Assembly: GCA_964600255.1 (NCBI GenBank) | Contig: CAZRIX010000002.1 | Location: 34,067-98,066 of the forward strand | Reading direction: 5' to 3' | Length of the DNA: 64,000 nt | Source of the DNA: an uncultured Candidatus Saccharibacteria bacterium | GTDB taxonomy: Bacteria; Patescibacteriota; Minisyncoccia; Phycocordibacterales; PALSA-1337 | Part shown: positions 984 to 44,585 of the stretch, one piece after another | How the letters are laid out: the number at the start of each line of letters is the position of its first letter | Position numbering within the stretch: position 1 is the stretch's first letter | Program-made: the position numbers and the translations under genes | Notes under the pieces: generated by a model | Database searches by the model: none | Seen by the model: the letters and a program-made list of their open reading frames with translations, nothing else | What the model was told of the DNA's origin: nothing

Positions 984-1013
984 TTGACACATAGCGTCTA
1001 GTCATGATATAAT
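984..1013 (+). promoter_or_regulatory. Near-consensus sigma70 promoter, TTGACA-N18-TATAAT
   Basis: TTGACA at 984-989 and TATAAT at 1008-1013, read directly from the sequence, about 50-80 nt upstream of the secreted-protein ORF. Confidence 0.55.
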
Positions 1014-1064: not shown

Positions 1065-1484
1065 ATGCTGAATAGGTTAACTTTTACTACCGTTATGAAG
1101 AAGATGTTTCAGGTACTGGCCCTCATTGCGGCCTTCGCGTCTGTTCATGCAATTGACCAGACGCTCGGTATTGCCGAGCCGACCAAGGCCTTCAAGGGGG
1201 AGTTGTTCCAGGTGCCGGCGGAGATCACCGAGTTAGAGGTCAATCGTGATGACTACGAGGGGGAGGTCTGGTACGGGGTTTATACCCCAAACACCCCTGG
1301 TGGGTTCGTCAACTTCATGCAGTCCGACGATGGCACTCTCACCTCACTCAGGATCGTGGTCAACGACCAAACGGTGTACGAGTGGTCGTCGAAGCCGGGC
1401 CAGTCCGAGCCTAACAGGATCAAGATCGAGCTCGATGACTGGAAGGCCTTCTTCAAGAAGGATGTCCTCAGTCGGATGAAGTAA
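1065..1484 (+). CDS. Small secreted protein of unknown function; GC-rich islet
   Basis: N-terminal signal peptide (MKKMFQVLALIAAFASVHA), so the true start is probably the Met at 1095. Local GC is clearly higher than in the flanking genes. A hairpin terminator follows at about 1519-1550. Confidence 0.5.
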   Translation: MLNRLTFTTVMKKMFQVLALIAAFASVHAIDQTLGIAEPTKAFKGELFQVPAEITELEVNRDDYEGEVWYGVYTPNTPGGFVNFMQSDDGTLTSLRIVVNDQTVYEWSSKPGQSEPNRIKIELDDWKAFFKKDVLSRMK

Positions 1485-1584
1485 CTTTCGAGTTACCGTG
1501 CACAGCAACGAATGCTTAAGCTGGTCAGCCCCTGTGGTTGGCCAGTTTTTATTATATAGTCTATGTATTAAACAAAGCGTTATA

Positions 1585-4444: not shown

Positions 4445-4507
4445 TCCTATATAGACCATATACTCATGATGTGGTATATTGTTGGCTGGTAAGAGAAAGG
4501 GTAATAG

Positions 4508-4882
4508 ATGAAACATGCTAAGTTAAAAGAATCGCCACTTGACGAAGTTGTGCATATACATGCCGTAGCACAGCACAATATCGAGGCGTACGAGAGAATG
4601 CCATTCAAACGCCTCGTCGGTCTGCTGCCGCATCTGCTCACAACCATCAACTGCTGGTTGCATCAGACTGATACCAAGATGCTCGGTCTGTGCAATGGGA
4701 ATAAGGCTTCGCTCAGGCGCTGGGCAAGTAGGGCCGACTTGATTCTGCGACACATCCACAGTCTTGAGCGCCTAGCGTCTCAAGATAAACCGCCTCGCCA
4801 AGAGGTAATTGCACAGTTGGCATTGATTGAAGCATATCGAGCTGGTGCCAGCTCAACCCTAGCCATCAACGGTGTCCTCTAG
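4508..4882 (+). CDS. Hypothetical protein; GC-rich; paralog of the ORF at 5020
   Basis: Open frame in a GC-rich segment. It shares the C-terminal motif I.QLALIEAYR with the next ORF. A hairpin terminator follows at about 4895-4930. Confidence 0.5.
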   Translation: MKHAKLKESPLDEVVHIHAVAQHNIEAYERMPFKRLVGLLPHLLTTINCWLHQTDTKMLGLCNGNKASLRRWASRADLILRHIHSLERLASQDKPPRQEVIAQLALIEAYRAGASSTLAINGVL

Positions 4883-5019
4883 GACACCCCTTTCACAACT
4901 TCGCGCAGCCACCTTTGTGTGGCGCGCGATTTTCTTTCAGCATTTTATAAGTTGAATTATTATTAAAAAAACGTATTATGCTTAGGAAAACTGCACTACA
5001 CAACAAAACATAGAAATAA

Positions 5020-5433
5020 ATGAGCAAAACATTCATCAGGGTTCCAGAGTATGAAGTAGCTTACATCCAAGGATTCACATCACGATGCATGGTTGCTCTG
5101 CAATCGCTAGTGGGTAGAGATCTTAGTGATCTAAGAAAGATGGTTTCCAATTATCGCAGTACCTTTATAGGACTCGGGGCGTCGATGATGCAACTACTCA
5201 AGGATGATGTTACTGAGTCTCATAACTGGACCGTCAGATTCGATCAAGTCATGGCTATGATTGATGAGGTTGAGCAACTACTCACCACTTATCCTGAAAC
5301 ACCCAATGACTGGCAAAAGGTGATAGGACGGATTGCTATCATTGAGGCGTATCGTGATAGTACGGATTGTACAATTCGAACCAACATCGCGCGCGCCTCA
5401 AATGAAGGTGAGATACAGTCTCTTTCAGCTTGA
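5020..5433 (+). CDS. Hypothetical protein; paralog of the ORF at 4508
   Basis: Shares ...VIGRIAIIEAYRDS... with the ORF at 4508. No recognisable domain. Confidence 0.5.
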   Translation: MSKTFIRVPEYEVAYIQGFTSRCMVALQSLVGRDLSDLRKMVSNYRSTFIGLGASMMQLLKDDVTESHNWTVRFDQVMAMIDEVEQLLTTYPETPNDWQKVIGRIAIIEAYRDSTDCTIRTNIARASNEGEIQSLSA

Positions 5434-5502
5434 AGGTGATCTCTCGTGACAAATTCAACATTCCGTGGTATTGTGTGATAACACCTACCACGGGATTTTT
5501 TT

Positions 5503-6186: not shown

Positions 6187-7117
6187 TCTCATAGTAGTTA
6201 CAGCTACTGTCCCATTTATTTTTATTGCTCTACTTTTTTATCTAAAACCAAATCAAATAAGCTTTGATCAATACACAGCTAACCATCACTATGTTCAGAA
6301 TGTAAAACTTTTGATAGTTGGAGACATTATGCTTGATCGTAATGTTCGAAATATTATAAATAAAAATGGATTCGAAAGTTTTTTTGCTGGTGTTAGAGAT
6401 CTCATTCAAAACGCCGACATATCGATTGCAAACTTAGAGGGTGCATTTACTACAAACCCTTCAGTTACCGCTAGTCTGGTTAGTAAGGAATTGATTTTTA
6501 CATTTGATCCTGTGCTTGCACCAAAGCTATCTGTGCTCGGATTCGATATTATGGGGCTTGCGAATAACCATACATATAACTACGGTGCCAAGGGTCTGGA
6601 ATCTACACGTAGATACGTAGGTACTGCCGGTATGCTCTACTACGGAGATCCGTTTAATAGGACTGAAATAAGTACGATAATAATAAAGAATGGAATAAGA
6701 ATAGGTGTGGTCGGTTTTCATGAGTTTTATTACACTAATTTTAATAATGTATTTTCAGAGATATCACGCTTAAGAAGTGAGGTGGATGTACTAATAGTTA
6801 CTCCACATTGGGGTGTTGAGTATCAGAAAGAACCAACAAAGAAGATGAAAGAGTGGGCTCACGCATTCATCGATAGTGGCGCCGATGCTGTTGTCGGTAC
6901 TCATACTCATATAGTAGGTGATACTGAGGTATATAAAGGTAAGAAAATATACTATTCACTAGGGAACTTTGCTTTCGATCAGTATTTCTCAAAGGCAACT
7001 AGTCAGGGATTGGCTGTCATTCTCGATATTGGAAAAGAAAGTGAAGGAATAACTATAGACTTTACAGATATACCAGTATATATAGACCGAACAGGGGTAA
7101 GAGTAGGAAGTATTTAA
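6155..7117 (+). CDS. CapA/PgsA-family metallophosphatase-fold protein (poly-gamma-glutamate capsule biosynthesis-like)
   Basis: N-terminal TM helix, then the calcineurin-like motifs LIVGDIMLDR and GLANNHTYNYG. Its 5' end overlaps trmD, and its last 50 nt fall inside the direct repeat described below. Confidence 0.75.
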   Translation: MNGENNRVRNSLIVVTATVPFIFIALLFYLKPNQISFDQYTANHHYVQNVKLLIVGDIMLDRNVRNIINKNGFESFFAGVRDLIQNADISIANLEGAFTTNPSVTASLVSKELIFTFDPVLAPKLSVLGFDIMGLANNHTYNYGAKGLESTRRYVGTAGMLYYGDPFNRTEISTIIIKNGIRIGVVGFHEFYYTNFNNVFSEISRLRSEVDVLIVTPHWGVEYQKEPTKKMKEWAHAFIDSGADAVVGTHTHIVGDTEVYKGKKIYYSLGNFAFDQYFSKATSQGLAVILDIGKESEGITIDFTDIPVYIDRTGVRVGSI

Positions 7118-7287
7118 CCCACTTGACAAATATCCTAGATATGCTAGGATATTAGAGGATCAACAGGGAAAGTCTATAAAAGCCAATAGGCTCTTTCAAG
7201 GGGATCCACAAATACAAATTCTCAAAAAGAGAAAGGAGTTAGCAACTCAGAACCCGATGTCTGCAGCCAATGCAAGCTAGGGCTAGT
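7068..7287 (+). repeat. Direct repeat, copy 1 (about 220 bp): CapA 3' end, operator/promoter palindrome and 5' part of a putative small RNA
   Basis: It is largely identical at both ends to 7343-7554, with a divergent internal hairpin (see the finding). Confidence 0.8.
7123..7153 (+). promoter_or_regulatory. TTGACA -35 box followed by a perfect 10-bp inverted repeat (AATATCCTAG-atatg-CTAGGATATT)
   Basis: Read directly from the sequence. This is an operator-like palindrome occupying the promoter spacer. Confidence 0.55.
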
Positions 7288-7335: not shown

Positions 7336-7342
7336 TTCTTGT

Positions 7343-7554
7343 ATACCGATATATATAGACCTAACAGGGGTAAGAGTGGGTAGTATTTAACCCCCCTTGA
7401 CAAATATCCTAGATATGATAGGATATTAGAGGATCAACAGGGAAGTGTGCCGCTAGGCACCTTCTAGGGGATCCACAAATACAAATTCTCCAAAAGAGAA
7501 AGGAGTTGACCACTCGGAACCCGATGTCTGCAGCCAATGCAAGCTAGGGCTAGT
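7343..7554 (+). repeat. Direct repeat, copy 2, including a remnant of the CapA C-terminal coding sequence
   Basis: Near-identical to 7068-7287. It carries a second TTGACA plus palindrome (7397-7427) with one mismatch in the right arm. Confidence 0.8.
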
Positions 7555-11157: not shown

Positions 11158-11952
11158 ATGAATAAAATTATAAAAATAATTATTGCGACAATTGCCATCC
11201 TGCTTATTGGCGGAGCTATATATGCTATAAAATATTACGATCCGAAGGCACCAAAATATAGCAAAGAAGTAAACACTTCCGTTTCTGATTGGAAGACTTA
11301 TACAAGTACTAAATTTGGATTTGAAATAAAATATCCTAATGATTGGAAGATCGATGAAAATACTGGAGGATTGGATACTTCTATTTCTATTTACAAGCCA
11401 AATAGTTCAACAGGAGGCAATGATGTTTTAGAAAACAGAATACATATAGATATCAACCCTTCATGTGATTCGACAGCTTGGACAATCAGTGGAAACGAAA
11501 TATACGATTCATTTAATATACTTAATGTGTGTTTGGATTCTAGTAAGTCATTGCAAGCAAAATTAACGGCTTTAAATGATGATTATAAAACTATAGAAGA
11601 TCTAATTATTTCTACGTTCAAACTTACCTCTCCAACAAATACTTCATCAACACAGTCATCAGAATCAATAGGTATTCAGGTAATTTCTCCTAAGTCAGGT
11701 GATAAATTGGTAATTGGTAAAACTTACGACGTAAAGTGGTCAAATTATTCTGGCCAAGAGAAGCTAAATATAGTGCTAGTTGGAAAGAAGTCTTCAACGG
11801 TAATCACTTCAACATTAAAGGCAGCTAACGTCGGTACTTATACAATGACAGTACCAGCTGTTGATACAAGTGATACTTATAAAATAGAAGTATATCCAGC
11901 AGGAGGTAGAGAGCTAGTCGGAAGAAGCGGAGAGTTCACTATTACCAATTAA
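11158..11952 (+). CDS. Membrane-anchored Ser/Thr-rich protein of unknown function, inserted between rpoB and rpoC
   Basis: N-terminal TM helix (IIKIIIATIAILLIGGAIYAI). It starts 12 nt after the rpoB stop and ends 23 nt before the rpoC start, with no terminator on either side. Confidence 0.6.
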   Translation: MNKIIKIIIATIAILLIGGAIYAIKYYDPKAPKYSKEVNTSVSDWKTYTSTKFGFEIKYPNDWKIDENTGGLDTSISIYKPNSSTGGNDVLENRIHIDINPSCDSTAWTISGNEIYDSFNILNVCLDSSKSLQAKLTALNDDYKTIEDLIISTFKLTSPTNTSSTQSSESIGIQVISPKSGDKLVIGKTYDVKWSNYSGQEKLNIVLVGKKSSTVITSTLKAANVGTYTMTVPAVDTSDTYKIEVYPAGGRELVGRSGEFTITN

Positions 11953-15689: not shown

Positions 15690-15720
15690 AAAGAGGGTCC
15701 GAAAGGGCTCTTTTTGCTTT
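15690..15720 (+). terminator. Intrinsic terminator after rpoC
   Basis: aAGAGGGTCCgaaaGGGCTCTtttttgcttt. Confidence 0.6.
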
Positions 15721-15797
15721 GTTTGACAACGATATATATTTTTTATAGTATTTGGCTGTTACTCTCGGTAACCAAAACTAGTACAGAAGGGTTAAAC

Positions 15798-16148
15798 ATG
15801 ACTATAGATCTCGGTGTTTGTGCTTGGGTGATTCTTCCAAAGAGAAGGTTCGACAAAGTATGGACTTACGTTCATCAAAATGATATGGAATCTGGATTCT
15901 GTCATCATAATATTGGACCTGAATATTCAGTAAGAAGTTATCATCACAGCGAAGAGGAGCTCTTCATTAATCTAATGTCAATAAGAGAGTGTATTGTTGA
16001 CTACGATGTCCCTGGTGGAAAAGAAGATGAGCTTGAGTATACTAATTTGTATAAAGGTTTGTTGCGTATCCTAAGGCGCCATGTCTTTAAAGCGAAAGAA
16101 GTAAATATTGATGACCTTCATATGATCTTACTTCGTGTATCTGCTTAG
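15798..16148 (+). CDS. Hypothetical protein
   Basis: The ORF opens at 15714 inside the rpoC terminator, so the start is more likely the Met at 15798 (MTIDLG...). No recognised domain. Confidence 0.4.
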   Translation: MTIDLGVCAWVILPKRRFDKVWTYVHQNDMESGFCHHNIGPEYSVRSYHHSEEELFINLMSIRECIVDYDVPGGKEDELEYTNLYKGLLRILRRHVFKAKEVNIDDLHMILLRVSA

Positions 16149-16157
16149 TTCTCGTGT

Positions 16158-16245
16158 CACGCAGCAACTACGTACACACCGACGAAACGGTGCGGTGTTC
16201 ACTCACCAACCCTGGCGATTCCTCACGGATTCGCCGGTTTTTTAA
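16158..16245 (+). repeat. Repeat R1: two-hairpin GC-rich module ending in an intrinsic terminator
   Basis: ACACCGACGAAACGGTGC...ACCAACCCTGGCGATTCCTcacGGATTCGCCGG plus T6. It is paralogous to 16712-16790. Confidence 0.7.
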
Positions 16246-16384
16246 TCTAAATGAGTGGAGGGATCTGATGACTTCATATGCTCATTACTCTTTGACATGG
16301 GTGTTGTTTAATGATATTTTGTTGTGTGTGGACTGGCGTGCAAAAGTAAGCCGTGATGGTCCAAAGTACATATAAAACCTGGTT

Positions 16385-16705
16385 ATGATAACTAGAAAGA
16401 CTGTCTGCATAGTCACTGTGATTGTGATGGTCGCTTGCGCAAGCATTGGCGTACCAGTGTTGGTTGCATACGAAGAGGACTTCGTAATCGCTGTCAATTC
16501 GTTAGAATCTCATGGCAGAGACACGACGTATGTCTGTCGCTGGACTGACGGAAAGGTTGCACTGATGCACAGTTCCACTGGTGAAGTTTGTATTCTCTCT
16601 ATTCAATGTAACTTCCAAAACATCGCGGTGGGCGAAACCTACACCGCCATGCCGGGACTTACATGTAGATGGGGACGTCTTCCTGGACAACTCAGGAAGG
16701 TATAA
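16385..16705 (+). CDS. Small Cys-rich secreted/membrane-anchored protein; GC-rich
   Basis: Signal/anchor sequence (VCIVTVIVMVACASIGVPVLVA). It sits between repeats R1 and R2. GC is elevated. Confidence 0.4.
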   Translation: MITRKTVCIVTVIVMVACASIGVPVLVAYEEDFVIAVNSLESHGRDTTYVCRWTDGKVALMHSSTGEVCILSIQCNFQNIAVGETYTAMPGLTCRWGRLPGQLRKV

Positions 16706-16711
16706 CAGTTT

Positions 16712-16790
16712 ACATAGCGTTCACACCGACGAAACGGTGCTGGTACAAAATACCAACCCTGGCGATTCCTAGCGGAGTCGCCGGTTTTTT
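16712..16790 (+). repeat. Repeat R2: second copy of the two-hairpin terminator module
   Basis: ACACCGACGAAACGGTGC...ACCAACCCTGGCGATTCCTagcGGAGTCGCCGG plus T7, with compensatory changes in the stem. Confidence 0.7.
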
Positions 16791-16796
16791 TATATA

Positions 16797-19052: not shown

Positions 19053-19307
19053 ATGAAACAGAAAAGATATTGGTTAAGAATTGGGATGCTTGGAATCATA
19101 CTCGGACCAATTGTCTGGTTTTGCTATTTAAAATTAGCAATTCCCACCTCGGTTGAAGTTACGGAACTTCCATTATATGATGCAATAGTACTCGGTCTGA
19201 TAGTTTACGGATCAGCTGCATTAATAGGATTTATCGTCGGATCAATAATTGGTTGGATTTACGATAGTGTGAAAAAAAGAAAGTATATAGTAAGTGGAGA
19301 TAAATAA
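19053..19307 (+). CDS. Small membrane protein (2 TM helices)
   Basis: Hydrophobic helices. It is tightly packed between gap and the next ORF. Confidence 0.4.
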   Translation: MKQKRYWLRIGMLGIILGPIVWFCYLKLAIPTSVEVTELPLYDAIVLGLIVYGSAALIGFIVGSIIGWIYDSVKKRKYIVSGDK

Positions 19308-19548
19308 ATATATGGATAATACAACAAATAAAATAGAATATTTTAATAAGCGAGCAAGACTTATACTGGATGAACGTAAAACACCAGGACAAGATGCTCA
19401 AATATACTCTGATCTCGGAGATGCTCTTGCATTGATCTCAAATAGGGTATTTGATCTTGGAATCGAGTCTGCTCAAAGGGTTTGCATGGCATTGAAAGAT
19501 GAAGAATTAAACAAAATTTTTGAAGAGTTAAAAACCATAACTAAATAG
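19294..19548 (+). CDS. Hypothetical small protein
   Basis: Open frame overlapping the previous ORF by 14 nt. Confidence 0.35.
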   Translation: MEINKYMDNTTNKIEYFNKRARLILDERKTPGQDAQIYSDLGDALALISNRVFDLGIESAQRVCMALKDEELNKIFEELKTITK

Positions 19549-19655
19549 AGCAGAAAATCCGTAATGTAAACATATCTTGCTCTATTATACAATCTATGGT
19601 ATTGTGTGGTCTGCAGTTTTAGAGAAAATCAGTAAAAATCAACAGTTCATTTGTT

Positions 19656-20051
19656 ATGAAAAGTGCGATTCGTCTATTGGCCATCATTGGCCTGCTCTTG
19701 GGAATCAACATCGGTTCAAGTGCTGCAGACATGCGCAGTGTGTTTGAGTCCCCGAAGTCTACTGCCTCGATGCCTGGCAAGGTCGTGTTCGACCGCGACA
19801 TCGAGGGTTCGAAGTTTGTGGCTATCAAGTCCGGCAAGACCACGTACGTCCAGTATATGCTGGCTACGGATGTGAATCTTTACTCGATCGACCCCGTGAG
19901 TGGTGGTTCTTGCATCACCCTTAGGAAGGACAAGCGTCGTACCATCGTCTTCTTTCCCATCCCGTTCCCGGACAACAAGGATGAGAGCGTTGAGTGGGTA
20001 CAGCTCGAGGAAGCCGATTTCAAGAAGTTGATCGAGGCTCTCAAACCCTGA
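19656..20051 (+). CDS. Small secreted protein; GC-rich islet; possibly related to the ORF at 1065
   Basis: Signal peptide (LLAIIGLLLGINIGSSAA), elevated GC, and a GC-rich terminator region after the stop (ccccggctgcgccaaaagcgtacgccgggttcttttttat). Confidence 0.5.
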   Translation: MKSAIRLLAIIGLLLGINIGSSAADMRSVFESPKSTASMPGKVVFDRDIEGSKFVAIKSGKTTYVQYMLATDVNLYSIDPVSGGSCITLRKDKRRTIVFFPIPFPDNKDESVEWVQLEEADFKKLIEALKP

Positions 20052-20140
20052 ACCTTCTCATCCCCCCACCCACAAGTCCCCGGCTGCGCCAAAAGCGTAC
20101 GCCGGGTTCTTTTTTATATTTATTGTGATAAAATACCAAC

Positions 20141-20590
20141 ATGAAAATATTACTTGCTAGTGACCATGCTGGTTTCAAGATGAAAGAGGAAATCAAGGCA
20201 TTTCTAAACGCTGAAAATTTTAATATTGAAGACCTCGGTGCACATGTTTTTGCGGAGAATGATGACTACCCTGAGATCATGCTTCCAGTTGCAATGAGAA
20301 TCGTGAATGACCCTGTTGGTACAAAGGCAGTTATTTTTGGCAAAAGTGGCAATGGTGAGGCTATGATCTGCAACAGATTACCCGGAGTTAGGGCTGCTGT
20401 TTACCACGGAGGCAACCTCGAGATAGTAAGACTATCTAGAATGCATAATGATGCCAATATCCTATCAATCGGTGCTGGTTTTATGGAAGACGAAGAAGTA
20501 AAGGAGGCTGTGAGACTTTGGATATCTACGCCATTTAGTAATGAGGAAAGGCACATCAGAAGAATAGAAAAGCTAGATGCTATAGAATAG
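20141..20590 (+). CDS. rpiB: Ribose-5-phosphate isomerase B
   Basis: MKILLASDHAGFKMKEEI with the RpiB/LacAB fold. Confidence 0.9.
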   Translation: MKILLASDHAGFKMKEEIKAFLNAENFNIEDLGAHVFAENDDYPEIMLPVAMRIVNDPVGTKAVIFGKSGNGEAMICNRLPGVRAAVYHGGNLEIVRLSRMHNDANILSIGAGFMEDEEVKEAVRLWISTPFSNEERHIRRIEKLDAIE

Positions 20591-20592
20591 TC

Positions 20593-21282
20593 TTGAATAT
20601 TAAAATGGAAATCATACCTGCAATATTGCCTAAGAATTTTAGAGAAATAGAGGAAAAGATCGGACTTTTGGTTGGATTGAGTAAAAAAGTACAAGTAGAC
20701 ATTTGTGATGGAAAATTTGTACCAAGTATTACATGGCCATATTGGAAAGCTAACGAAAGACCAGATGAAAACTTCGAGGCAATCCTCAGGGAAGAAAGAG
20801 GTATGCCAGAGTGGGAGGATTTTGACTATGAATTCGATCTAATGATAGAGAATCCTACTGCAGACGACGCTAGAAAGTGGCTTTCTGCTGGTGCGGAGAG
20901 AATAATACTACATCTACACTCATCAAAAGACTTAGATCCAGTTATAGGAGTATTGGACGGCCTGGTACAGATAGGAATCGCAATAAATTCGACTACTGAT
21001 GTTAACGATTTGAAAAAATACGCTGATAGAATTCAATACGTACAGGTAATGGGTATAAGAAAAGCTGGATTCCAAAGGCAGAAATTTGAAATGGCAACGT
21101 TGGATAAAGTTAAAGAAGTCAAAACCACATTTCCAAATCTACAGGTACAGGTTGATGGAGGTGTAACCCTAGAAACTGCAGAAATGCTGAAGGAAGCTGG
21201 AGTAGATCGAGTTGTTGCTGGCTCTGCTGTTTTTGATTCAACCGATATTGTGGATACCTTGGAACAATTCAGAAGTATTTAG
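20593..21282 (+). CDS. rpe: Ribulose-phosphate 3-epimerase family protein
   Basis: TIM-barrel Rpe motifs (IIPAILP...VDICDGKFVP...VDGGV). Divergent, with insertions. Confidence 0.7.
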   Translation: MNIKMEIIPAILPKNFREIEEKIGLLVGLSKKVQVDICDGKFVPSITWPYWKANERPDENFEAILREERGMPEWEDFDYEFDLMIENPTADDARKWLSAGAERIILHLHSSKDLDPVIGVLDGLVQIGIAINSTTDVNDLKKYADRIQYVQVMGIRKAGFQRQKFEMATLDKVKEVKTTFPNLQVQVDGGVTLETAEMLKEAGVDRVVAGSAVFDSTDIVDTLEQFRSI

Positions 21283-21299
21283 GTGCTATAATATAGCAA

Positions 21300-22151
21300 A
21301 TGCCACTGAACCCACTAAATGATGAGAAAGCCAAACTTCTTTTTGATAAGGCTTACGCCATAAGAAAGTCTATTATTGAAATGCTCATAGAGGCAAAAAG
21401 TGGTCACACGGCAGGACCTCTGGATATGGCTGATATTTTTGCATATTTGTACTTTCATGCATTAAGACATGATCCAAAAAAGCCCGATTGGGAATACAGA
21501 GACAGACTAGTGCTTTCAAATGGGCATATTTGTCCAGTTCTGTATGCAACAATGGCCCATGCAGGATATTTCCCCGTTGAGGAACTCAAAACTCTTCGCA
21601 AGTTCAAGTCTCGTCTGCAAGGTCATCCACATCGCGAATTTCTACCAATGCTCGAGAATTCATCTGGACCACTAGGATCTGGACTATCTCAGGCTGTAGG
21701 AATGGCACTAGCTGAAAGAATTGACCATGGCAAAACATCAAGCAAACAATTCGTCTGCCTTTTGGGTGATGGAGAACTCGATGAAGGTCAGAATTGGGAG
21801 GCTATAATGCTTGCTGGCAAGGAAAAAATCCAAAATCTCACAGTTTTTGTAGATAGAAACAATATTCAAATAGATGGTTTTACCGAGGATGTTATGCCAC
21901 TCAATCCACTTGCTGATAAGTGGCGTTCTTTCAACTGGCATGTGCAGGAAATTGACGGGCACAATTTCCGCGCTATCGATGAGGCTTGGGGACAAGCTCA
22001 GGCTGTGTTCGACAAGCCTTCGGTGATAATAGCAAATACAATATCATCAAAGGGAATTCGGGATTATGAGCGCAAATACGAATGGCATGGCAAACCACCA
22101 ACAGCTCCAGAGGAGATAAAGGTGGCAAAGCATGCATTTGGAATTATTTAA
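21300..22151 (+). CDS. Transketolase, N-terminal (TPP-binding) subunit
   Basis: HTAGPLDMADIFAYLY, GDGELDEGQNWEA. Confidence 0.9.
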   Translation: MPLNPLNDEKAKLLFDKAYAIRKSIIEMLIEAKSGHTAGPLDMADIFAYLYFHALRHDPKKPDWEYRDRLVLSNGHICPVLYATMAHAGYFPVEELKTLRKFKSRLQGHPHREFLPMLENSSGPLGSGLSQAVGMALAERIDHGKTSSKQFVCLLGDGELDEGQNWEAIMLAGKEKIQNLTVFVDRNNIQIDGFTEDVMPLNPLADKWRSFNWHVQEIDGHNFRAIDEAWGQAQAVFDKPSVIIANTISSKGIRDYERKYEWHGKPPTAPEEIKVAKHAFGII

Positions 22152-22160
22152 TATAAAATT

Positions 22161-22421
22161 ATGAAAATATTTGAAATCATTTTAAAAGTTTTGTTTCTGG
22201 CTGGGTCTATTTATTCAATTCGTGCCGAATCTATACAAACCCCATACTTGATCGCATATTTGGTCATATGTTTGGTACTTGGAGTTGTTCTATTCTTCAA
22301 CAAAAAGCAAAGTTATGGCTATGAACTAGCAAATAGAGAGATTGTGATCAGGAAGATTGAGGGAGTACTGCTAGGGGTTTTTGCTATATTCGCTTTCATT
22401 GTTCAAGTACTTAACTTTTAA
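22161..22421 (+). CDS. Small membrane protein between the transketolase halves
   Basis: Three hydrophobic helices; 86 aa. Confidence 0.4.
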   Translation: MKIFEIILKVLFLAGSIYSIRAESIQTPYLIAYLVICLVLGVVLFFNKKQSYGYELANREIVIRKIEGVLLGVFAIFAFIVQVLNF

Positions 22422-22427
22422 TCAGAA

Positions 22428-23423
22428 ATGTTAAACGCAATTCAAAAACTTAATCCAAAACTATTCGACAAGGATGTCGAGCAACTTCCTATTCGCAAGG
22501 GATTTGGCGAAGGGCTTTTGAAAGCTGGGGAAAATGATAAAAGAGTGGTTGGGTTGTGTGCTGACCTGACTGAATCGACATACATGCACCTTTTTAAAGA
22601 GAAATTTCCTGAAAGGTTCATTGAGATGGGTATTGCTGAGCAGAATCTTGCTAGTGTGGCATCTGGAATGGCTGCTATGGGTAAGATTCCATTCATTACT
22701 TCATATGCAATGTTTTCTCCAGGTAGAAATTGGGAGCAGATTCGTACTACGATCTGCTATAACGACCGTCCAGTGAAGATTGCAGGCTCACACGCTGGAA
22801 TCTCGGTCGGACCTGACGGAGGAACTCATCAAGCTATCGAGGATATCGCTATTACTCGTGTAATTCCAAATATGGTAGTTATCTCTCCATGTGACGCAAT
22901 AGAGGCACGCAAAGCCACTATCGCATGTGCAAGTACAAATTTTCCTACATATCTACGTCTAGCAAGAAACAATACCCCAGTTATAACTACAAACGAGAGT
23001 CCGTTCGAAATCGGCAAGGCTCAGTTATTGTTCTCATCCACCAAGAAGGCTGAAGTGGGAATAATAGTCACTGGGGCTCTGACATACAGGGCTTTAAAGG
23101 TTGCAAACGAGTTAGAGAAGGTAGGAAAGTCCGTTAAGGTTCTAAACATCAGTACTATAAAGCCACTAGATGAACAAGCTGTATGGCAACTGGCTCATGA
23201 AGCCGGAGCTATCGTTACCGTGGAGGAGCATCAGATCGCTGGAGGTCTCGGGGGATCGGTGGCGGAGTGTCTAGCAAAGCATTATCCGACGCCAATGGAA
23301 TTTGTTGGGGTAAAGGATCTATTCGGACAATCTGGAACACCAGATGAGCTCGTAGAACACTATGGAATGGGTGAAAAAGACATACTTTCTGCTGTGCATA
23401 AGGTAATGTTGCGAAAAAAATAA
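22428..23423 (+). CDS. Transketolase, C-terminal (pyrimidine-binding) subunit
   Basis: Transketolase pyrimidine-binding and C-terminal domains (GIAEQNLASVASGMA...). Confidence 0.9.
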   Translation: MLNAIQKLNPKLFDKDVEQLPIRKGFGEGLLKAGENDKRVVGLCADLTESTYMHLFKEKFPERFIEMGIAEQNLASVASGMAAMGKIPFITSYAMFSPGRNWEQIRTTICYNDRPVKIAGSHAGISVGPDGGTHQAIEDIAITRVIPNMVVISPCDAIEARKATIACASTNFPTYLRLARNNTPVITTNESPFEIGKAQLLFSSTKKAEVGIIVTGALTYRALKVANELEKVGKSVKVLNISTIKPLDEQAVWQLAHEAGAIVTVEEHQIAGGLGGSVAECLAKHYPTPMEFVGVKDLFGQSGTPDELVEHYGMGEKDILSAVHKVMLRKK

Positions 23424-23619
23424 AATCTGGTATATTTTTTACATGAATTTTTATTCACAAACCAACTATCACGTGATTAGTCTCTTCTGGCCAAAAAGTT
23501 CCAGAGTTGGTATTGTGATGTATCTATAATCGATAAATCTCAATAACGAGCTCTGGAACAACCCAGGGCTCGTTCTGTATTGGAATACAGAAGCACAAAA
23601 ACATCAGAACAAGTTTGTT

Positions 23620-23913
23620 ATGAGTGATGAAATGTTTAGGAACAAAGCATTGACGACTCCAGTCGATGGCAGGCCAACTCATGGCCTCATCGGCTGGAAG
23701 GTTATTGATGGGATACCGATGGAGTATATCTACATTACAGAAAAGAGGGGTTGGGTACTTATGGAGACACATCGCAAGGAGAAAGAGGAAGCGAAGGCTA
23801 GAAACATCGAACTCTACTCCAGGCCACGAGAACTTCCTCAAGAGAATAGTACAGGTAATTGCGGTACCGCAAGGCTATTCTGGAGAGTAAGTCCTTTTGG
23901 AAGCGCATGGTAG
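23620..23913 (+). CDS. Hypothetical protein; GC-rich
   Basis: Followed directly by a perfect 9-bp-stem terminator. The antisense ORF 23524-23841 is probably spurious. Confidence 0.4.
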   Translation: MSDEMFRNKALTTPVDGRPTHGLIGWKVIDGIPMEYIYITEKRGWVLMETHRKEKEEAKARNIELYSRPRELPQENSTGNCGTARLFWRVSPFGSAW

Positions 23914-23933
23914 CTCCAAGACCAGTTCTTAAT

Positions 23934-23963
23934 CCACCACCTCGAAAGAGGTGGTGATTTTTT
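23934..23963 (+). terminator. Intrinsic terminator (CACCACCTCgaaaGAGGTGGTG plus T6). A second hairpin at 23978-24004 serves the convergent minus-strand gene.
   Basis: Read directly from the sequence. Confidence 0.7.
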
Positions 23964-24021
23964 ATATATAAAAGAAAGCAGCGTCCGTTTCCGAACGCTG
24001 CTGCAGGAGTGGCTCCTAACT

Positions 24022-24507
24022 CTACCAATTCGCTTTCCACTGATCCACGATGTATTTCAGAGAATCGAACTCGGTACCAGCTTGAATTTCCGGCAAGACC
24101 CTGGTGTTGCTGATTCTAGCACCGAAGTAACGCTCAAACTCCTTCCTCTGAGAAGGATGTAGGACAATCACCCTGAGCAAGGTCCTGTCACTACCGACCG
24201 TGATGTTTTGGACAGCTTCCACAACTTGCAGTGACTGGCAGTAAACACCTGTCCTCCTCAACTCCTTCAGTGCTCCATACCAGGCATGTCGATTCTCGAC
24301 ACGACTCGTAATAACTACCGAGACCGCCTTGAGGTGTTGGATCGCAAACGCGACTCTTTCCGCAAGGTCAGATGGTATTTCACCCCAATGATAATCCTGC
24401 ATGTGGTGCGCGATCGTACTGCACAAGCCTTCGCTAAACATAGCTTGGACTCGGGATGCATTTATCCCATGTTGGCTGTTCGACATAATCAATGTACTAT
24501 AACCCAA
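24022..24507 (-). CDS. Hypothetical protein; GC-rich
   Basis: A 161-aa ORF convergent with 23620-23913. The hairpin GCAGCGtccgtttccgaaCGCTGC followed by an A/T run lies 3' of it. Confidence 0.45.
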   Translation of the reverse strand: MGYSTLIMSNSQHGINASRVQAMFSEGLCSTIAHHMQDYHWGEIPSDLAERVAFAIQHLKAVSVVITSRVENRHAWYGALKELRRTGVYCQSLQVVEAVQNITVGSDRTLLRVIVLHPSQRKEFERYFGARISNTRVLPEIQAGTEFDSLKYIVDQWKANW

Positions 24508-24644
24508 TCGGCTACCAAGTCACAGCGTACACACGTACACCAGAAAAATTGATAAGCAAAAGGATTGTTCAAAAAAATAGTATCATTGTAATGTAGACTG
24601 TCAATACTAATCAAATACGCGAATATAAGATATAGTTATGTCAA

Positions 24645-26657: not shown

Positions 26658-26664
26658 TCTTGCC

Positions 26665-27441: not shown

Positions 27442-27476
27442 TCACGAGACTGATATAGTAGGCTATTATACAAAAT

Positions 27477-30146: not shown

Positions 30147-30190
30147 TATACGTATTTTTCTCTGCATTGTAATATAATGATATAGATTCT

Positions 30191-32584: not shown

Positions 32585-32610
32585 TGTAAAATCATTAAAT
32601 CCCTCGTAAA

Positions 32611-32752
32611 GGGCTCGTAGCTGTCATGGTAGATATACAACGGATAGCTTCAAGCTAAGTAGGAAATCAAATAGTAAACAAGGGCTTGTGGCTGTTATGG
32701 TAGGTATACAACAGATAGCTACAATCAGTGATTAAGTTAGTATAAGTTACAA
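32611..32752 (+). repeat. Two tandem 71-nt degenerate copies of tRNA-Ala (pseudo-tRNA units)
   Basis: Each unit starts GGGCT(C/T)GT(A/G)GCTGT(C/T)ATGGTAG and matches the 5' half of the adjacent tRNA-Ala. Their 3' halves lack T-loop motifs. Confidence 0.6.
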
Positions 32753-32825
32753 GGGCTCGTAGCTCAGATGGTAGAGCAATCGCTTTGCAAGCGAAAGGTC
32801 AGGAGTTCGAATCTCCTCGAGTCCA
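32753..32825 (+). tRNA. tRNA-Ala (anticodon UGC)
   Basis: GGGCTCGTAGCTCAGATGGTAGAGC...CTTTGCAAG...GGAGTTCGAATCTCCTCGAGTCCA: a cloverleaf with a G3:U70 pair in the acceptor stem, anticodon TGC, and the GTTCGAATC T-loop. No encoded CCA. Confidence 0.9.
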
Positions 32826-32835
32826 CAACTAAAGA

Positions 32836-32866: not shown

Positions 32867-32977
32867 TCTGAAACTTGAAAGGAGATGAGAAAAGCGGAGC
32901 TATGTCGAGCCAGCAGGCGAGACTGCGAGCTGGGGTCGCGGAAAGTTCTGAACGTCGGTGAAGAACTTATCCGTGAC

Positions 32978-32997: not shown

Positions 32998-33030
32998 AAA
33001 ACAAACCCGCAGCCAACACTGCGGGTTTCG

Positions 33031-38921: not shown

Positions 38922-39294
38922 CAGGCTCCTGTACAGGTAAGCAAGCCCGCCGACTCAGAGTCGGCGGGCGCTTTACTTGTCAAAATTAATCAAATAGTAA
39001 GACAAAAGGCGCCTGTAGGGGCGCCTTGTTGCGTGTGAAAGAGGTGTCAGATAGACATTCTCAGAAGTTCAAAAAGTGGTACGTAACGCCTATGCGTGAA
39101 GATACTCAGTATTCCGACACCGAGCTCGTAAACAGCAAACGCTACGAAACCAAGCAAGAACAAGAATACGCAGACGAATAGAGCAGCTGCGATTTGAAAT
39201 ACAAACCATAAGGCTTTTAGTGCGTTCATCTCGCAATATACTACCATTTTTCGTCCTCTTTCAAAATACCCAAATATCTGCTATTGTTTTCTTC

Positions 39295-41321: not shown

Positions 41322-41339
41322 CGTGAGTCTAAAATATAT

Positions 41340-41500
41340 TCCCCTGGATGCGCAACAAGGGACCCGAAGACACGGGGTCTAAGGGTCCCTACAACCAATG
41401 CCGTGGGCATTCTTAACCAGGTGGTCCCGGTGTCGATGCGCCTTTCGTTCGCCACTACTCAGCGCAGTAGGTTGCATAGCCAGCTTATCAAAACTTTACA
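41340..41500 (+). other. GC-rich hairpin-dense non-coding segment (candidate structured RNA, unidentified)
   Basis: Nested stems GGGACCC-ga-AGAC-acggg-GTCT-aa-GGGTCCC, ATGCCgtggGCAT and CTACTcagcgcAGTAG. No convincing ORF. Confidence 0.25.
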
Positions 41501-41519
41501 ATCCCAGACATATGGTCAA

Positions 41520-41738
41520 ATATATACAAGTGTGGTATAGTATGGCAAATGAAAAAACGCTCTTTTCGGATCCTGCAACATCTCGGCAGACACACTTATA
41601 GTGACAAGCCGGAACGATTCGGTCAGGATATGTTTATGGTGGTGCTCATCATAAGCATCGTATGGGCCTTTCCAAAATAGGCCCGTCAACAAATTCGAGA
41701 AAGCCCCGCGTCTCTTCACGACCGGGGCTTTTTGTTAT
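41520..41738 (+). promoter_or_regulatory. leuS leader: extended -10 promoter (TGGTATAGT) plus a roughly 190-nt leader ending in an intrinsic terminator that abuts the start codon
   Basis: Terminator AAAGCCCCGcgtctcttcacgaCCGGGGCTTTTTG at 41703-41735, with the leuS ATG at 41739. GGUGG-containing segments lie upstream. Confidence 0.4.
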
Positions 41739-44585
41739 ATGATGTCTAATACTATGAATCCATATGATCATACAAAAGTTGAAAAGAAGTGGCAAAAAGT
41801 TTGGGAATCAAAGAAACCAAACAAGGTAAAAGAGGATCCGAAGAAACCCAAATTCTATGCACTCATAGAATTCCCATTTCCATCTGGTGCAGGACTTCAT
41901 GTAGGTCATATCAGAAGTAATACCGCTATGGATATAATTTCCCGTAAGCGAAGAATGGAAGGTTACAATGTTCTATATCCAATCGGTTGGGATGCATTTG
42001 GATTGCCAACAGAAAACTACGCCATCAAGACTGGTATCCAACCCGCAATAGTTACAAAGCAGAATACTGACAATTTCCGTAAGCAACTGAAAGCTCTAGG
42101 ATTTTCTTTTGACTGGTCACGAGAAATAGATACAACAGATCCAAAATACTACAAATGGACGCAGTGGATTTTCCTACAATTTTTGAAAAAAGGATTGGCA
42201 TACAAAAAGAAGATGATTATAAACTGGTGTCCAAAAGACCTTATCGGACTAGCAAACGAGGAGGTGGTCAACGGATGTTGCGATCGCTGTGGAACACAAG
42301 TTGAGAAAAAAGAAAAAGAGCAGTGGATGCTTGCCATTACCAAGTATGCTGACCGTTTGGACAAAGATCTAGATGAGACTGAATTCCTAGAGAAAATAAA
42401 GATCCAACAAAGAAATTGGATTGGAAAGAGTGAGGGTGCAGAGATTAATTTTCCAATAAAAGGTAGTAGTGACAAAATTAAGGTTTATACAACACGTCCA
42501 GATACATTGTTTGGTGTGACTTATGTTGTACTTGCGCCAGAACACCCCTTTGTCCAGGAATATTCAGGCAAAGCAGAGAATACAATAGAGATTGCAAAGT
42601 ATATTAAAGATGTAAAGAGTAAGACCGACATCGAGCGCACAGACACAAAGAAAGAAAAGACTGGGGTTGAATTAAAGGGAATTAAAGCAATTAACCCAAT
42701 TAATAATGAAGAAATACCTGTCTGGGTGGCAGATTATGTACTAGGTGACTACGGAACTGGGGCTGTTATGGCTGTACCTGCACATGACGAAAGGGATTTT
42801 GAATTTGCAAAAAAATATGGGTTGGGTATGAGACATGTTATTGCTCCAAGTCTAATTGATACAACAAACCCACCACAGCAAGGAAAGCAGGATACTTTTA
42901 GAGAAATAATTCTAGCTATAGTTTACGATCCGAGAAACAAGAAGTACTTAACGCTTAAATGGAAAAATCAGCCTTGGACAACTTTTGTGACCGGCGGAAT
43001 TGAAAAGAATGAGAGCGCATTAGAATCGGCAAAGAGAGAAATCCTGGAAGAAACAGGATATAAGAATATAAGACTTGTAAGAAGCCTTGGAATGTCTGAA
43101 TCCTTTTTCTACGCAGCTCACAAGGGAGTGAACAGAAGGGTTCATGTCGAGCACTTTTTATTTGAATTAGTAGACGATGCAAGAGTGGATTTAGGTGAAG
43201 TAGAAAAAGCTAATTATGATGTGCAGTGGCTATCCACTGAGGAAATTTCAAAAACAAAACTACAGCACGTAGAGTTTAATATGCTTTGGAAACGTATTCA
43301 GACAGGGAACGACACCTTTATTGATTCAGGAACTATTGTAAACTCAGGAGATTTTACAGGCAAGAATTCTGAAGAAGCTAAGAAGGCGATGACCCTAGTA
43401 GCCGGTGGCGAATGGGTTACAAAGTTCAAACTCCGCGATTGGGTTTTCTCTCGCCAGCGATATTGGGGTGAACCTATTCCTGTTGTTCACTGTGAAAAAT
43501 GTGGAATAGTTCCACTTCCAGACAAGGAACTTCCTTTGAAACTTCCTAAAGTTAAAAACTATGCACCTACTCAAAACGGTGAGTCTCCGCTTTCAGCTAT
43601 AGATAAGTGGGTAAATACAAAGTGTCCAAATTGTAAAGGTAAAGCAAAAAGAGAAACTGACACTATGCCAAACTGGGCAGGAAGTAGTTGGTACTATTTG
43701 AGATACACTGATGCAAAAAACAAAAAAGTTTTTGCTGATCCAAAGAACTTAAAATACTGGACTCCAGTAGACTGGTACAACGGTGGTATGGAGCATACAA
43801 CACTTCACTTACTGTATTCCCGATTCTGGCACAAATTCCTTTATGATCTTGGTCTAGTACCTACGAAGGAGCCTTACAAGAAGCGTACATCTCACGGTTT
43901 GATACTTGCTGAAGGAGGGGCAAAGATGTCTAAGTCAGTTGGTAATGTAATCAATCCAGATGATTTCGTAAAAACTGTCGGTGCTGACACGTTGAGAATA
44001 CATGAAATGTTTATGGGTCCATTTGATCAAGCTATTGCATGGGACACAAATAGTATTGCCGGCTCAAGAAGATTCATCGAGAGAGTTTGGAAACTTGTAG
44101 AAAAGATTGGTGAAAATAATATTGAAAAGATAGAGGTGGCAACACACAAAACAATAAAAAAAGTAGGTGAAGATATTGAGAAGATGGGATTCAATACTGC
44201 GATCAGTTCAATCATGATTTTATTGAATGATTTGGAGAAGGAAGACAAGATTCCAAAGGAAATTTATGAGACTTTACTCAAAATTTTGGCCCCCTTTGCA
44301 CCCCATGTTACCGAGGAATTATGGTCATTACTAAAGAACAAAGGTTCAGTTCACGCCAACTCATGGCCTCAGTATGATCCATCAAAACTTATAGAGAGTA
44401 CGGTAAGGATAATGATTCAAGTAAACGGGAAGGTTAGGGGGGAGATGAGTATACCAGCCGACACTGCAGATGCCGAGGTTGAGAAAATGGCTCTAAATAT
44501 GGATGAAATAAAAAAGTGGACATTTGACAAAGAAATTAAAAAGGTTATAGTTATTAAAAATAGGCTGGTGAATATCGTGTTTTAG
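41739..44585 (+). CDS. leuS: Leucyl-tRNA synthetase with an inserted NUDIX hydrolase domain
   Basis: Class I HIGH (PSGAGLHVGH) and KMSKS motifs, plus the editing-domain region (AVPAHDERDFEFAKKYGL). Inserted at about 42890-43330 is a domain carrying the NUDIX box GGIEKNESALESAKREILEETGY. Confidence 0.95.
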   Translation: MMSNTMNPYDHTKVEKKWQKVWESKKPNKVKEDPKKPKFYALIEFPFPSGAGLHVGHIRSNTAMDIISRKRRMEGYNVLYPIGWDAFGLPTENYAIKTGIQPAIVTKQNTDNFRKQLKALGFSFDWSREIDTTDPKYYKWTQWIFLQFLKKGLAYKKKMIINWCPKDLIGLANEEVVNGCCDRCGTQVEKKEKEQWMLAITKYADRLDKDLDETEFLEKIKIQQRNWIGKSEGAEINFPIKGSSDKIKVYTTRPDTLFGVTYVVLAPEHPFVQEYSGKAENTIEIAKYIKDVKSKTDIERTDTKKEKTGVELKGIKAINPINNEEIPVWVADYVLGDYGTGAVMAVPAHDERDFEFAKKYGLGMRHVIAPSLIDTTNPPQQGKQDTFREIILAIVYDPRNKKYLTLKWKNQPWTTFVTGGIEKNESALESAKREILEETGYKNIRLVRSLGMSESFFYAAHKGVNRRVHVEHFLFELVDDARVDLGEVEKANYDVQWLSTEEISKTKLQHVEFNMLWKRIQTGNDTFIDSGTIVNSGDFTGKNSEEAKKAMTLVAGGEWVTKFKLRDWVFSRQRYWGEPIPVVHCEKCGIVPLPDKELPLKLPKVKNYAPTQNGESPLSAIDKWVNTKCPNCKGKAKRETDTMPNWAGSSWYYLRYTDAKNKKVFADPKNLKYWTPVDWYNGGMEHTTLHLLYSRFWHKFLYDLGLVPTKEPYKKRTSHGLILAEGGAKMSKSVGNVINPDDFVKTVGADTLRIHEMFMGPFDQAIAWDTNSIAGSRRFIERVWKLVEKIGENNIEKIEVATHKTIKKVGEDIEKMGFNTAISSIMILLNDLEKEDKIPKEIYETLLKILAPFAPHVTEELWSLLKNKGSVHANSWPQYDPSKLIESTVRIMIQVNGKVRGEMSIPADTADAEVEKMALNMDEIKKWTFDKEIKKVIVIKNRLVNIVF

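Follow-up and report, generated by a model that had tools for sequence, protein, structure and literature searches.

GC-rich small-gene islets at variable intergenic slots among the housekeeping genes of a groundwater Patescibacteria genome

Background

Phage morons, reportedly described by Juhala and Hendrix in 2000, are said to be autonomous units of promoter, open reading frame (ORF) and terminator that lie between conserved genes of lambdoid phages. Replacement-type flexible islands are known in SAR11 and Prochlorococcus and as islands of the O-antigen type, and the taxonomically restricted (ORFan) genes of bacteria are said to be the subject of work by Daubin and Ochman in 2004. Here we describe a series of short islets that share some features with each of these systems. 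They lie in a 64-kb stretch of bacterial DNA (hereafter the window, to which positions refer unless a contig is named), are richer in guanine plus cytosine (GC) than their surroundings, and are wedged at intergenic positions among housekeeping genes. In each coding islet, a small ORF stands between a promoter and a hairpin terminator.

The window matches NCBI contig JACCDT011200955.1 (190,847 bp), part of a whole-genome shotgun project of over a million contigs, and the public annotation of that contig was used for the called genes. The RNA polymerase subunit RpoC is 69-71% identical to its counterparts in Patescibacteria metagenome-assembled genomes labelled Saccharibacteria, Zambryskiibacteria and Paceibacteria, and related contigs come from groundwater metagenomes (the same whole-genome shotgun project, Hainich wells, PRJEB22302). 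On these two grounds, the organism is an uncultured groundwater bacterium of the candidate phyla radiation (CPR), a Paceibacteria-like member of the Patescibacteria. CPR bacteria have tiny genomes, and their strain-specific biology is mostly unknown.

The islets were first pointed out in a reading of the DNA letters alone (the sequence-only reading), which our analysis follows up. With moderate confidence, we favour the explanation that they are autonomous single-gene cassettes at fixed slots, whose divergent alleles are exchanged within the genus by homologous recombination and whose high GC content is a lasting property of the genes.

Results

Alleles at the islet slots

Syntenic contigs from other samples were fetched through identical or near-identical core proteins. 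Across same-genus genomes, the flanking DNA is 95-99% identical while the alignment fails over the bodies of the islet ORFs; the positional alleles that stand there mostly share 25-40% amino-acid identity and are GC-rich as well. The divergence spans the whole ORF, from about codon 2-12 to the stop codon. For example, the RpoB and RpoC proteins of contig L090 are 99.9% identical to those of the window, and the flanking DNA is 95-97.6% identical. The nucleotide alignment breaks at 4511, the start codon of ORF4508, comes back briefly, for 84 nt at the terminator of that ORF, and is restored from 5441, just past the stop codon of ORF5020. The L090 alleles at these two positions are 32-34% (ORF4508) and 27% (ORF5020) identical to those of the window, and they too are GC-rich.

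Breaks with similarly sharp edges occur at 23655-24488, 48057-48589, 54360-54671, 16247-16714 and 39013-39224. Within the first of these (23655-23930 and 24003-24488), allele identity is 36-39%, next to a UvrB that is 97% identical. In L083 the allele of ORF23620 is 38-39% identical, its first ~12 codons being conserved and the remainder divergent, and that of ORF24022 is 36-37% identical; L087 has no ORF24022 gene. At 48057-48589, the ORF48100 alleles of L093, L095 and L096 are 25-32% identical to that of the window. L096 is the closest relative of the window, with a synonymous divergence (dS) of 0.08 in the adjacent mnmA gene, yet it carries another ORF48100 allele class. ORF54324 likewise falls into two allele classes, the window being 76-97% identical to L096, L097 and L098 and 40% identical to L093. 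Against L096 (6973-7323), only nonsynonymous differences are seen (pN, their proportion, is 0.015, or about four by estimate), at a flanking-gene dS of ~0.08; this is a hint of positive selection, the counts being too small to test. The ORF38727 allele of L103 is 67% identical, with a proportion of synonymous differences (pS) of 0.81 and a pN of 0.18, between flanking proteins that are 100% identical.

In other cases, the content of a slot is exchanged altogether. In L103 and L104, 39013-39224 is swapped for 803 nt with a 131-aa ORF, and in L083 the segment 16247-16714, which carries ORF16385, is swapped for a membrane protein of 181 aa that is unrelated to it. What lies between GrpE and DnaK in L093, L094 and L099 also differs from the content of the window. 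In all, slots 4508, 5020, 23620, 24022, 48100, 54324, 38727 and 16385 behave as replacement-type hypervariable loci.

The neighbouring slots 4508 and 5020 allow allele histories to be compared with one another and with the adjacent core gene khpA. In L192, the first ORF is 77% identical to that of the window, and its dS (0.64) equals that of flanking khpA (0.61). The second ORF of the same contig is only 29% identical to that of the window, and 81% identical to that of L090, with a dS of 0.19 versus 0.89 for khpA. In L193, the first ORF is present and the second is absent. These comparisons indicate that neighbouring cassettes reassort independently between strains, and that the histories of the alleles are decoupled from those of the flanking core genes.

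The slot of ORF1065 lies at the convergent junction of smc and rnr, which is only 2-30 nt long in many genomes of the wider family and holds unrelated cargo in others; no ORF1065 relative was present at 80 RNase R loci fetched from metagenome contigs. An index of 5.8 billion proteins returned only ORF1065 itself, the family was not found in the Joint Genome Institute (JGI) metagenome contigs, and an S16 look-up for more relatives of the slot did not turn up any identical protein. Three relatives, at 34-50% identity, did emerge from an exhaustive HMMER search of 1.84 billion representative proteins. Two of the three occupy the same slot, in the order smc, ORF1065 relative, ORF6N gene, rnr, and the flanking proteins in those two genomes are 83-90% identical to those of the window. 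The third is on an 831-bp groundwater contig and has a TTGACA promoter upstream. The GC content at third codon positions (GC3) of the relatives is 0.47, 0.63 and 0.65, versus 0.22-0.32 in the flanks. On this evidence, ORF1065 is an old, fast-evolving occupant of its slot, present only in some lineages, and not a one-off import.

Base composition and its persistence

The GC content of the window is 39.8%, with a standard deviation of 4.8% in 200-nt windows. The sequence-only reading had picked out a dozen GC-rich segments by eye. On computation with sliding windows, the profile is indeed non-uniform, with discrete GC-rich segments, and 10 of the 12 lie between the 97th and the 99.8th percentile of same-length windows; the remaining two, 62470-62760 and 63200-63500, reach only the 92nd and 86th percentiles. 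Segments 1065-1500 and 19656-20100 both have a GC content of 0.537 (z 3.8) and segment 38700-38980 one of 0.527, and that of ORF5020 is only mildly raised (0.44). Minor peaks (0.49-0.52 threshold) also occur within rpoB, rpoC, tkt, uvrA and uvrB, and are ordinary fluctuation of conserved genes.

The excess lies mainly at codon position 3. In core genes of at least 180 aa, GC3 is 0.333 (standard deviation 0.038, n=37), and in the islet ORFs it is 0.50-0.76 overall (values by ORF in Table 1). Deviant base and codon usage with respect to the host, one mark of a genomic island, is therefore present.

The high GC content persists among homologues. In particular, the orthologues of ORF19656 have a GC3 of 0.68 in each of three lineages, all replacement alleles have GC contents of 0.45-0.51, and a high GC3 is kept in homologues down to 25-50% identity. 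Because divergent homologues share it, the high GC content is a stable, long-lived trait of the genes and not the fading mark of a recent import. Some gene-specific force would then keep it high, with GC-biased gene conversion at hot spots of recombination and selection on mRNA or codons as candidates.

Homologues, traces of insertion and foreign import

A distinct compositional class, or repeated horizontal acquisition, had been proposed for the islets at first reading. The distinct class stands, and so does horizontal exchange, in view of the flank-decoupled allele histories; capture from foreign donors is the part that does not hold. Such capture would consist of recent, repeated imports from a GC-richer host bacterium, plasmid or phage, whose GC content has not yet drifted to 40%, and we consider it unlikely. 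The strongly deviating composition is what it would predict, and many relatives have an empty stretch of only 2-100 nt at the SMC/RNase R and khpA/trmD slots, where others have unrelated cargo. Every homologue found, however, comes from within the CPR genus or family of the window and sits in the same chromosomal slot wherever its flanks are readable (the contigs of P0005 are too short to reveal its slot), and no homologue was found outside the clade. ORF19656 has three relatives, 85-98% identical, and the ORF4508/ORF5020 family has 12 members among 5.8 billion proteins. Searches of viral contigs for the ORF1065 family, ORF19656 and ORF24022 gave no relatives. GC3 stays high over 15-75% protein divergence, and no excess of GC-to-AT changes is seen in the islets, at low power. 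Close relatives thus hold positional homologues at these loci, instead of lacking the gene while a foreign donor has it.

Physical traces of insertion exist at a few islets, and they too speak for import. At 16165-16796 and 62538-63233, cargo is bracketed by duplicated terminator repeats (Table 1). In L083, the same composite repeat pair as at 16165-16796 brackets different cargo, and the small hairpin of this repeat shows two compensatory pair changes between the window and L083. The 3' end of tRNA-Ala is found again, as an exact 19-nt repeat, 152 nt downstream of the tRNA gene and beside the 32880-33490 islet; this repeat looks like the attachment-site footprint of a lost integrative element, and no integrase is present near it. 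The combination of integrase or transposase, tRNA site and direct repeats that marks an integrated island is not seen: one islet is tRNA-adjacent, two have duplicated terminator repeats, and the others have neither. The absence of a recombinase from all islets, noted already from the letters, was borne out among the called genes of the contig and in Pfam scans, and it counts against foreign import as well. The islets also lack the properties of targets of a diversity-generating retroelement; no template-like repeat of any islet was found in the window, the genes called on the contig include none annotated with a reverse-transcriptase domain, and the allele divergence is not confined to a short C-terminal region.

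Islet proteins

The islet proteins are genus-restricted orphans of at least eight unrelated families. In an all-against-all comparison, ORF4508 and ORF5020 form the sole paralogous pair (E=7e-6), and no other kinship emerged. The resemblance between ORF1065 and ORF19656 that had been read from their letters disappears on comparison, with a BLASTP E of 25 and an hhalign profile-profile probability of 0.7%. By hydropathy only, about half of the products have an N-terminal signal or anchor segment, namely the seven encoded by 1065, 16385, 19656, 48100, 54324, 62620(-) and 39047(-), and the initial description of many of them as secreted is overstated; the six encoded by 4508, 5020, 23620, 24022, 33031 and 38727 have no such segment and look cytosolic. 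The AlphaFold 2 (AF2) model of ORF1065 combines a putative signal-peptide helix at the N terminus with a 5-strand sheet and a helix at the C terminus, at a predicted local distance difference test score (pLDDT) of 74, and that of ORF4508 is a four-helix bundle with a pLDDT of 93. Neither model had an informative fold match in the PDB, and the ORF4508 model had none in BFVD.

These features bear on the possibility that the islets are selfish or conflict modules engaged in an arms race (toxin-antitoxin, toxin-immunity, type I toxin, or phage defence and anti-defence systems), comparable to phage morons that have settled in a chromosome. The layout of promoter, ORF and terminator with deviant GC content is moron-like, the alleles are extremely diverse, and there are a tandem pair (4508/5020), a convergent pair (23620/24022) and tiny hydrophobic ORFs at 62620-62753 (44 aa) and 39047-39247 (66 aa). 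An ORF6N-domain gene occupies the neighbouring slot of two relatives, L188 and L190. Against this stand the Pfam, PHROG and PADLOC scans of ten islet proteins, which gave nothing convincing (weak matches below curated cut-offs or with E ~0.01-0.05), and the fold searches, which gave nothing specific. The independent reassortment of the ORFs at 4508 and 5020, together with the loss of the second in one contig, argues against an obligate cognate pair. Nor is there any prophage context around the cassettes, whose neighbours are rpoB/rpoC, rnr, smc, uvrA/uvrB, tkt, alaS, leuS, ribosomal-protein genes and dnaK. We therefore regard conflict modules as a doubtful explanation.

The ORF6N-domain genes mentioned above (L188 7628-8170 and L190 2621-3163) are AT-rich, encode 180 aa and follow the ORF1065 relative; the window has no such gene.

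Coding status and codon usage

The islet ORFs have strong periodicity at codon position 3, and in the ORFs compared pN is well below pS, so that the coding-signal check suggested along with the sequence-only reading was passed. Within allele lineages, the ratio of nonsynonymous to synonymous divergence (dN/dS) is 0.07-0.46: 0.17 for ORF19656, 0.07-0.10 for ORF54324 against L096, L097 and L098, 0.18-0.23 for ORF4508, 0.46 for the ORF5020 type and 0.16 for the ORF48100 type. Since pN is far below pS within allele lineages, the islet ORFs are real protein genes.

It is accordingly very improbable that the islets as a whole are GC-rich structured RNAs or other non-coding elements, whose ORFs are accidents of the scarcity of stop codons in GC-rich DNA. 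Overlapping ORFs are present on both strands within islets, the public annotation skipped ORF54324 and ORF38727, and no supported ORF exists at 41340-41740 or in 32880-33490 left of 33031; for segment 41340-41740 the non-coding explanation probably holds. Elsewhere the periodicity, the low pN of ORFs 19656, 38727, 54324, 4508 and the 48100 family, and the confident AF2 fold of ORF4508 contradict it. Rfam searches of the whole window (gathering and E-value thresholds) returned only tRNA-Ala, and thus matched no family to an islet.

Ordinary codon adaptation of a specially expressed gene set, to which the position-3 excess and the extreme avoidance of A-ending codons shared by ORF1065 and ORF19656 (A3 0.06-0.07) could point, is scarcely credible as the cause of the GC3 excess, because GC3 is only 0.25-0.33 in ribosomal-protein genes (0.25-0.35 when these are taken together with the rpoB/rpoC and tRNA-synthetase genes), and because GC at codon position 2 is also raised in several islets (0.43-0.45), which makes the shift regional and not purely one of codon choice.

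Organisation of the cassettes

The coordinates of the islet features are collected in Table 1. Intrinsic terminators are the most regular element: as had been claimed at the outset, a GC-rich hairpin followed by a U-run lies 3' of every coding islet. Strong promoter matches are present in several islets, and the best one in the window is that of ORF1065. The size range first given for most of the islet ORFs, 60-160 aa, widens to 44-161 aa, and it does not apply to the two segments in which no ORF is supported. For ORF1065, the true start is probably the ATG at 1095 (MKKMFQVLALIAAFASVHA...).

Table 1. Positions of islet ORFs, their predicted signals and associated repeats in the window (signal peptides, anchors, transmembrane segments and cytosolic location are predictions from hydropathy)
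Feature	Position	Strand	Description
Sigma-70-type promoter of ORF1065 unit	984..1013	+	TTGACA-18-TATAAT, TG-extended, 12/12 consensus
ORF1065	1065..1484	+	139 aa as called; GC 0.54, GC3 0.76; signal-peptide protein
ORF1065 intrinsic terminator	1518..1548	+	13-bp stem + T-run
ORF4508	4508..4882	+	124 aa, cytosolic; GC3 0.55
ORF4508 promoter-like site	4452-4480		terminator hairpin ~4901-4929 (fold z -4.6)
ORF5020	5020..5433	+	137 aa, tandem paralogue of ORF4508; promoter-like site 4952-4979; terminator ~5460-5502
Composite repeat (~78 nt), left copy	16165..16249	+	small hairpin CACCG-loop-CGGTG + terminator hairpin + T-run; after gene 15714-16148
ORF16385	16385..16705	+	106 aa, N-terminal membrane anchor; GC 0.48; promoter-like site 16292-16320
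Composite repeat, right copy	16712..16796	+	includes terminator 16759-16784
ORF19656	19656..20051	+	131 aa, signal-peptide protein; GC3 0.69; terminator hairpin ~20079-20115 (z -5.5)
ORF23620	23620..23913	+	97 aa, cytosolic; terminator 23935-23956
ORF24022	24022..24486	-	154 aa from ATG 24486, cytosolic; GC3 0.56; promoter 24604-24577; terminator 24002-23977
tRNA-Ala 3' end and exact 19-nt repeat	32809-32827, 32979-32997	+	bracket 151 nt; 0 matches expected by chance
ORF33031	33031..33486	-	151 aa, strong Shine-Dalgarno; GC 0.47; terminator 33028-33003
ORF38727	38727..38921	+	64 aa; GC3 ~0.63 (38712/38727); terminator 38945-38969
Small hydrophobic ORF	39047..39247	-	66 aa; terminator 39027-39006
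GC-rich non-coding stretch 5' of leuS	41340..41740	no strand	closes with hairpin + T-run ~41700-41735; no supported ORF
ORF48100	48100..48570	-	156 aa, two N-terminal transmembrane segments; GC3 0.51; terminator 48070-48050
ORF54324	54324..54674	+	116 aa, N-terminal anchor; GC3 0.61; promoter 54222-54250; terminator hairpin ~54677-54720
44-nt hairpin repeat, two copies	62538-62581, 63190-63233		brackets 44-aa and 110-aa ORFs (62582-63189)
Hydrophobic ORF	62620-62753	-	44 aa; promoter 62791-62764
ORF	62864-63196	+	110 aa, not GC-rich

Several candidate identities for parts of the islets were tried and rejected. Local Rfam searches of 38500-39300 and 41300-41780 gave chance-level or terminator-like matches only, so that the 38.7-kb peak has no support as RNase P, transfer-messenger RNA or signal recognition particle RNA, nor 41.3-41.7 kb as a T-box. 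A 13-mer shared by positions 1046 and 38920, AGCAGGCTCCTGT, is expected 0.82 times by chance at two or fewer mismatches, and an exact repeat of this kind is unremarkable in 64 kb.

Gene context and other features of the window

The housekeeping genes of the window comprise smc, rnr, rpsP, khpA, trmD, rpoB, rpoC, ndh, gap, rpiB, rpe, a split tkt, uvrB, uvrA, uvrC, ddl, zwf, ychF, leuS, mnmA, alaS, infA, a ribosomal-protein block, rpoA, grpE and dnaK. The distant relatives found through RpoC have too little synteny to be of use, with the exception of L012, in which khpA and trmD are adjacent.

Some further features were noted between these genes. In the long non-coding DNA 5' of rpoB, 7069-7287 and 7342-7554 form a ~273-bp tandem duplication, 90-93% identical; each copy has a TTGACA-16-TAGGAT promoter-like site, and the close relative L090 is apparently single-copy. 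Between rpoB and rpoC (11158-11952) lies an AT-rich ORF of 264 aa (GC 0.33, GC3 0.24) with a weak Kre9_KNH match, and a 768-nt segment of this insert is missing from L090. In L083 and L084, a 3.2-kb AT-rich block of seven small genes, mostly predicted membrane proteins, lies between gap and the ORF19656 orthologue (L083 6339-9872, corresponding to window 19257-19595), where the window has only two 84-aa ORFs.

Relatedness over 19621-30298 is mosaic. L087 is nearer to the window than L083 over 19.6-22.1 kb (dS 0.05-0.5 versus 0.4-1.9), and farther from it at tktC, at uvrB and at the response regulator gene (UvrB 90% versus 97%). This implies that recombination among lineages has affected core genes too.

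Directly 5' of the true tRNA-Ala gene (32753-32826), 32607-32677 and 32678-32748 are tandem 71-nt units, each starting with a copy of the acceptor and D arm portion of tRNA-Ala, its initial ~25 nt; of the three, ARAGORN recognises just the true gene. The leader of leuS (41340-41753) has a strong hairpin and T-run ~20 nt ahead of the start codon and is attenuator-like. In the leucyl-tRNA synthetase itself (41739-44585), a NUDIX domain is inserted at residues ~390-510, where it separates the editing domain from the remaining catalytic core. Finally, two conserved genes (~376 and 458 aa) lie at 54764-57300 between alaS and infA, with synteny kept in all relatives, and the second of them has a weak match to the phage family Baseplate_J (PF04865).

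Discussion

Exchange of cassettes between strains

Under the explanation that we favour, a cassette would consist of a sigma-70-type promoter, an ORF of 44-161 aa and an intrinsic terminator at a fixed intergenic slot, and each slot would hold a series of homologous, very divergent alleles. Homologous recombination would carry whole cassettes between strains, the crossovers lying in the promoter, the terminator and the core flanks, which are conserved, and now and then a cassette would disappear or give way to unrelated cargo. Other CPR bacteria have been shown to be naturally competent (PMC10187176). Given that precedent and the lack of a recombinase gene, DNA uptake followed by recombination in the conserved flanks is the simplest, and we infer the most likely, route. 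Within an allele lineage, purifying selection would act, relaxed relative to core genes. The likeliest driver of diversity would be diversifying or frequency-dependent selection at the interface with host cells or phages. For this Patescibacteria genome, the surface-attached or symbiotic lifestyle suggested by the sequence-only reading is plausible.

A number of observations weigh against this explanation. Slots 1065, 32880-33490 and 41340-41740 are without a same-species comparison, and the search for relatives of the ORF33031 slot yielded none. ORF19656 is conserved in place across relatives; its locus is not hypervariable and hence not of the replacement type. For the low dS of this gene (0.38, versus 1.25-1.9 in neighbouring genes), constraint on synonymous sites and a recent sweep are both candidate causes. 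Pairwise estimates gave no dN/dS above 1, and no cassette has been assigned a function, the fold matches being uninformative. AT-rich flexible DNA also exists, namely the 11179-11946 insert and the 3.2-kb block of L083. As for the GC content, only about half of the slot occupants in wider relatives are clearly GC-richer than their locus. Polarised islet substitutions are balanced (28 AT-to-GC versus 26 GC-to-AT, and 47 versus 44), in a comparison of low power that is affected by saturation.

A more far-reaching version, which we put forward tentatively and think rather unlikely, is that the cassettes form a recombinase-free, genus-wide pool in which conserved promoters and hairpin terminators, present at two slots as duplicated repeats of 44-78 nt (one of them with compensatory changes), serve as "handles" for recombination, that GC-biased gene conversion drives both the GC content and the fast evolution, and that the cassettes set host or phage specificity. 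If this is true, cassette loci are a bacterial counterpart of GC-biased accelerated regions.

Near-identical strains here differ most in about ten very small orphan genes, predicted to be independently transcribed. The GC3 excess lets such genes be spotted from sequence alone, which offers a cheap selection of candidate host-interaction, phage-interaction and immunity genes in uncultured episymbionts. The same loci are a natural system for asking whether recombination hot spots raise GC content in bacteria, and they break with the general expectation that bacterial genes which are acquired or confined to one lineage have a higher AT content than the genome. If the pattern is genome-wide and Paceibacteria-wide, it will be a useful marker for annotation and population genomics; otherwise, it is a local curiosity of one genus.

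Comparison with known systems

In the literature searched, no description of this pattern was found; the papers on horizontal gene transfer and hypervariation in CPR bacteria deal with larger islands or a repeat locus.

ORFans resemble the islet genes in that they are short, lineage-restricted and fast-evolving, with no homologues beyond a narrow clade. However, ORFans are typically AT-richer than the genome, whereas the islet genes are consistently GC-richer, a trait conserved among homologues.

Integron cassettes are likewise small single-ORF units that close with an imperfect inverted repeat. Two of the slots described here have cargo between copies of a hairpin repeat, and at 16165-16796 this cargo differs between two genomes. 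In contrast to integrons, there is no IntI integrase, attI or array, and the units have their own promoters; moreover, the hairpins are followed by T-runs, like ordinary intrinsic terminators, and most slots have no flanking repeat.

Phage morons share the architecture, in which one small ORF has a sigma-70 promoter and a factor-independent terminator to itself. They also share the position between conserved genes, the deviant base composition, and the presence in some relatives and absence in others. The location is different, since the present cassettes lie in a cellular chromosome among housekeeping genes, with no prophage. The islets differ further in having homologous divergent alleles at one slot and a higher GC content that lasts over deep divergence, and the three families searched for in viral contigs have no homologues there.

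Replacement-type islands have in common with the islets a fixed position, conserved syntenic core flanks and content that diverges between close strains. In both, the history of the alleles conflicts with that of the core genes, and homologous recombination within the flanks is implied. The differences are mainly of scale and content: the cassettes are single genes of 0.3-1 kb, as against clusters of 10-100 kb, about ten separate slots occur within 64 kb, and the products are orphans, not glycosyltransferases or transporters. In addition, the cassettes are GC-richer than the genome, whereas such islands are usually GC-poorer. The closest analogues are therefore phage morons in architecture and replacement-type hypervariable loci in population behaviour, and what is new is the combination of single-gene scale, a CPR host and a persistent GC excess.

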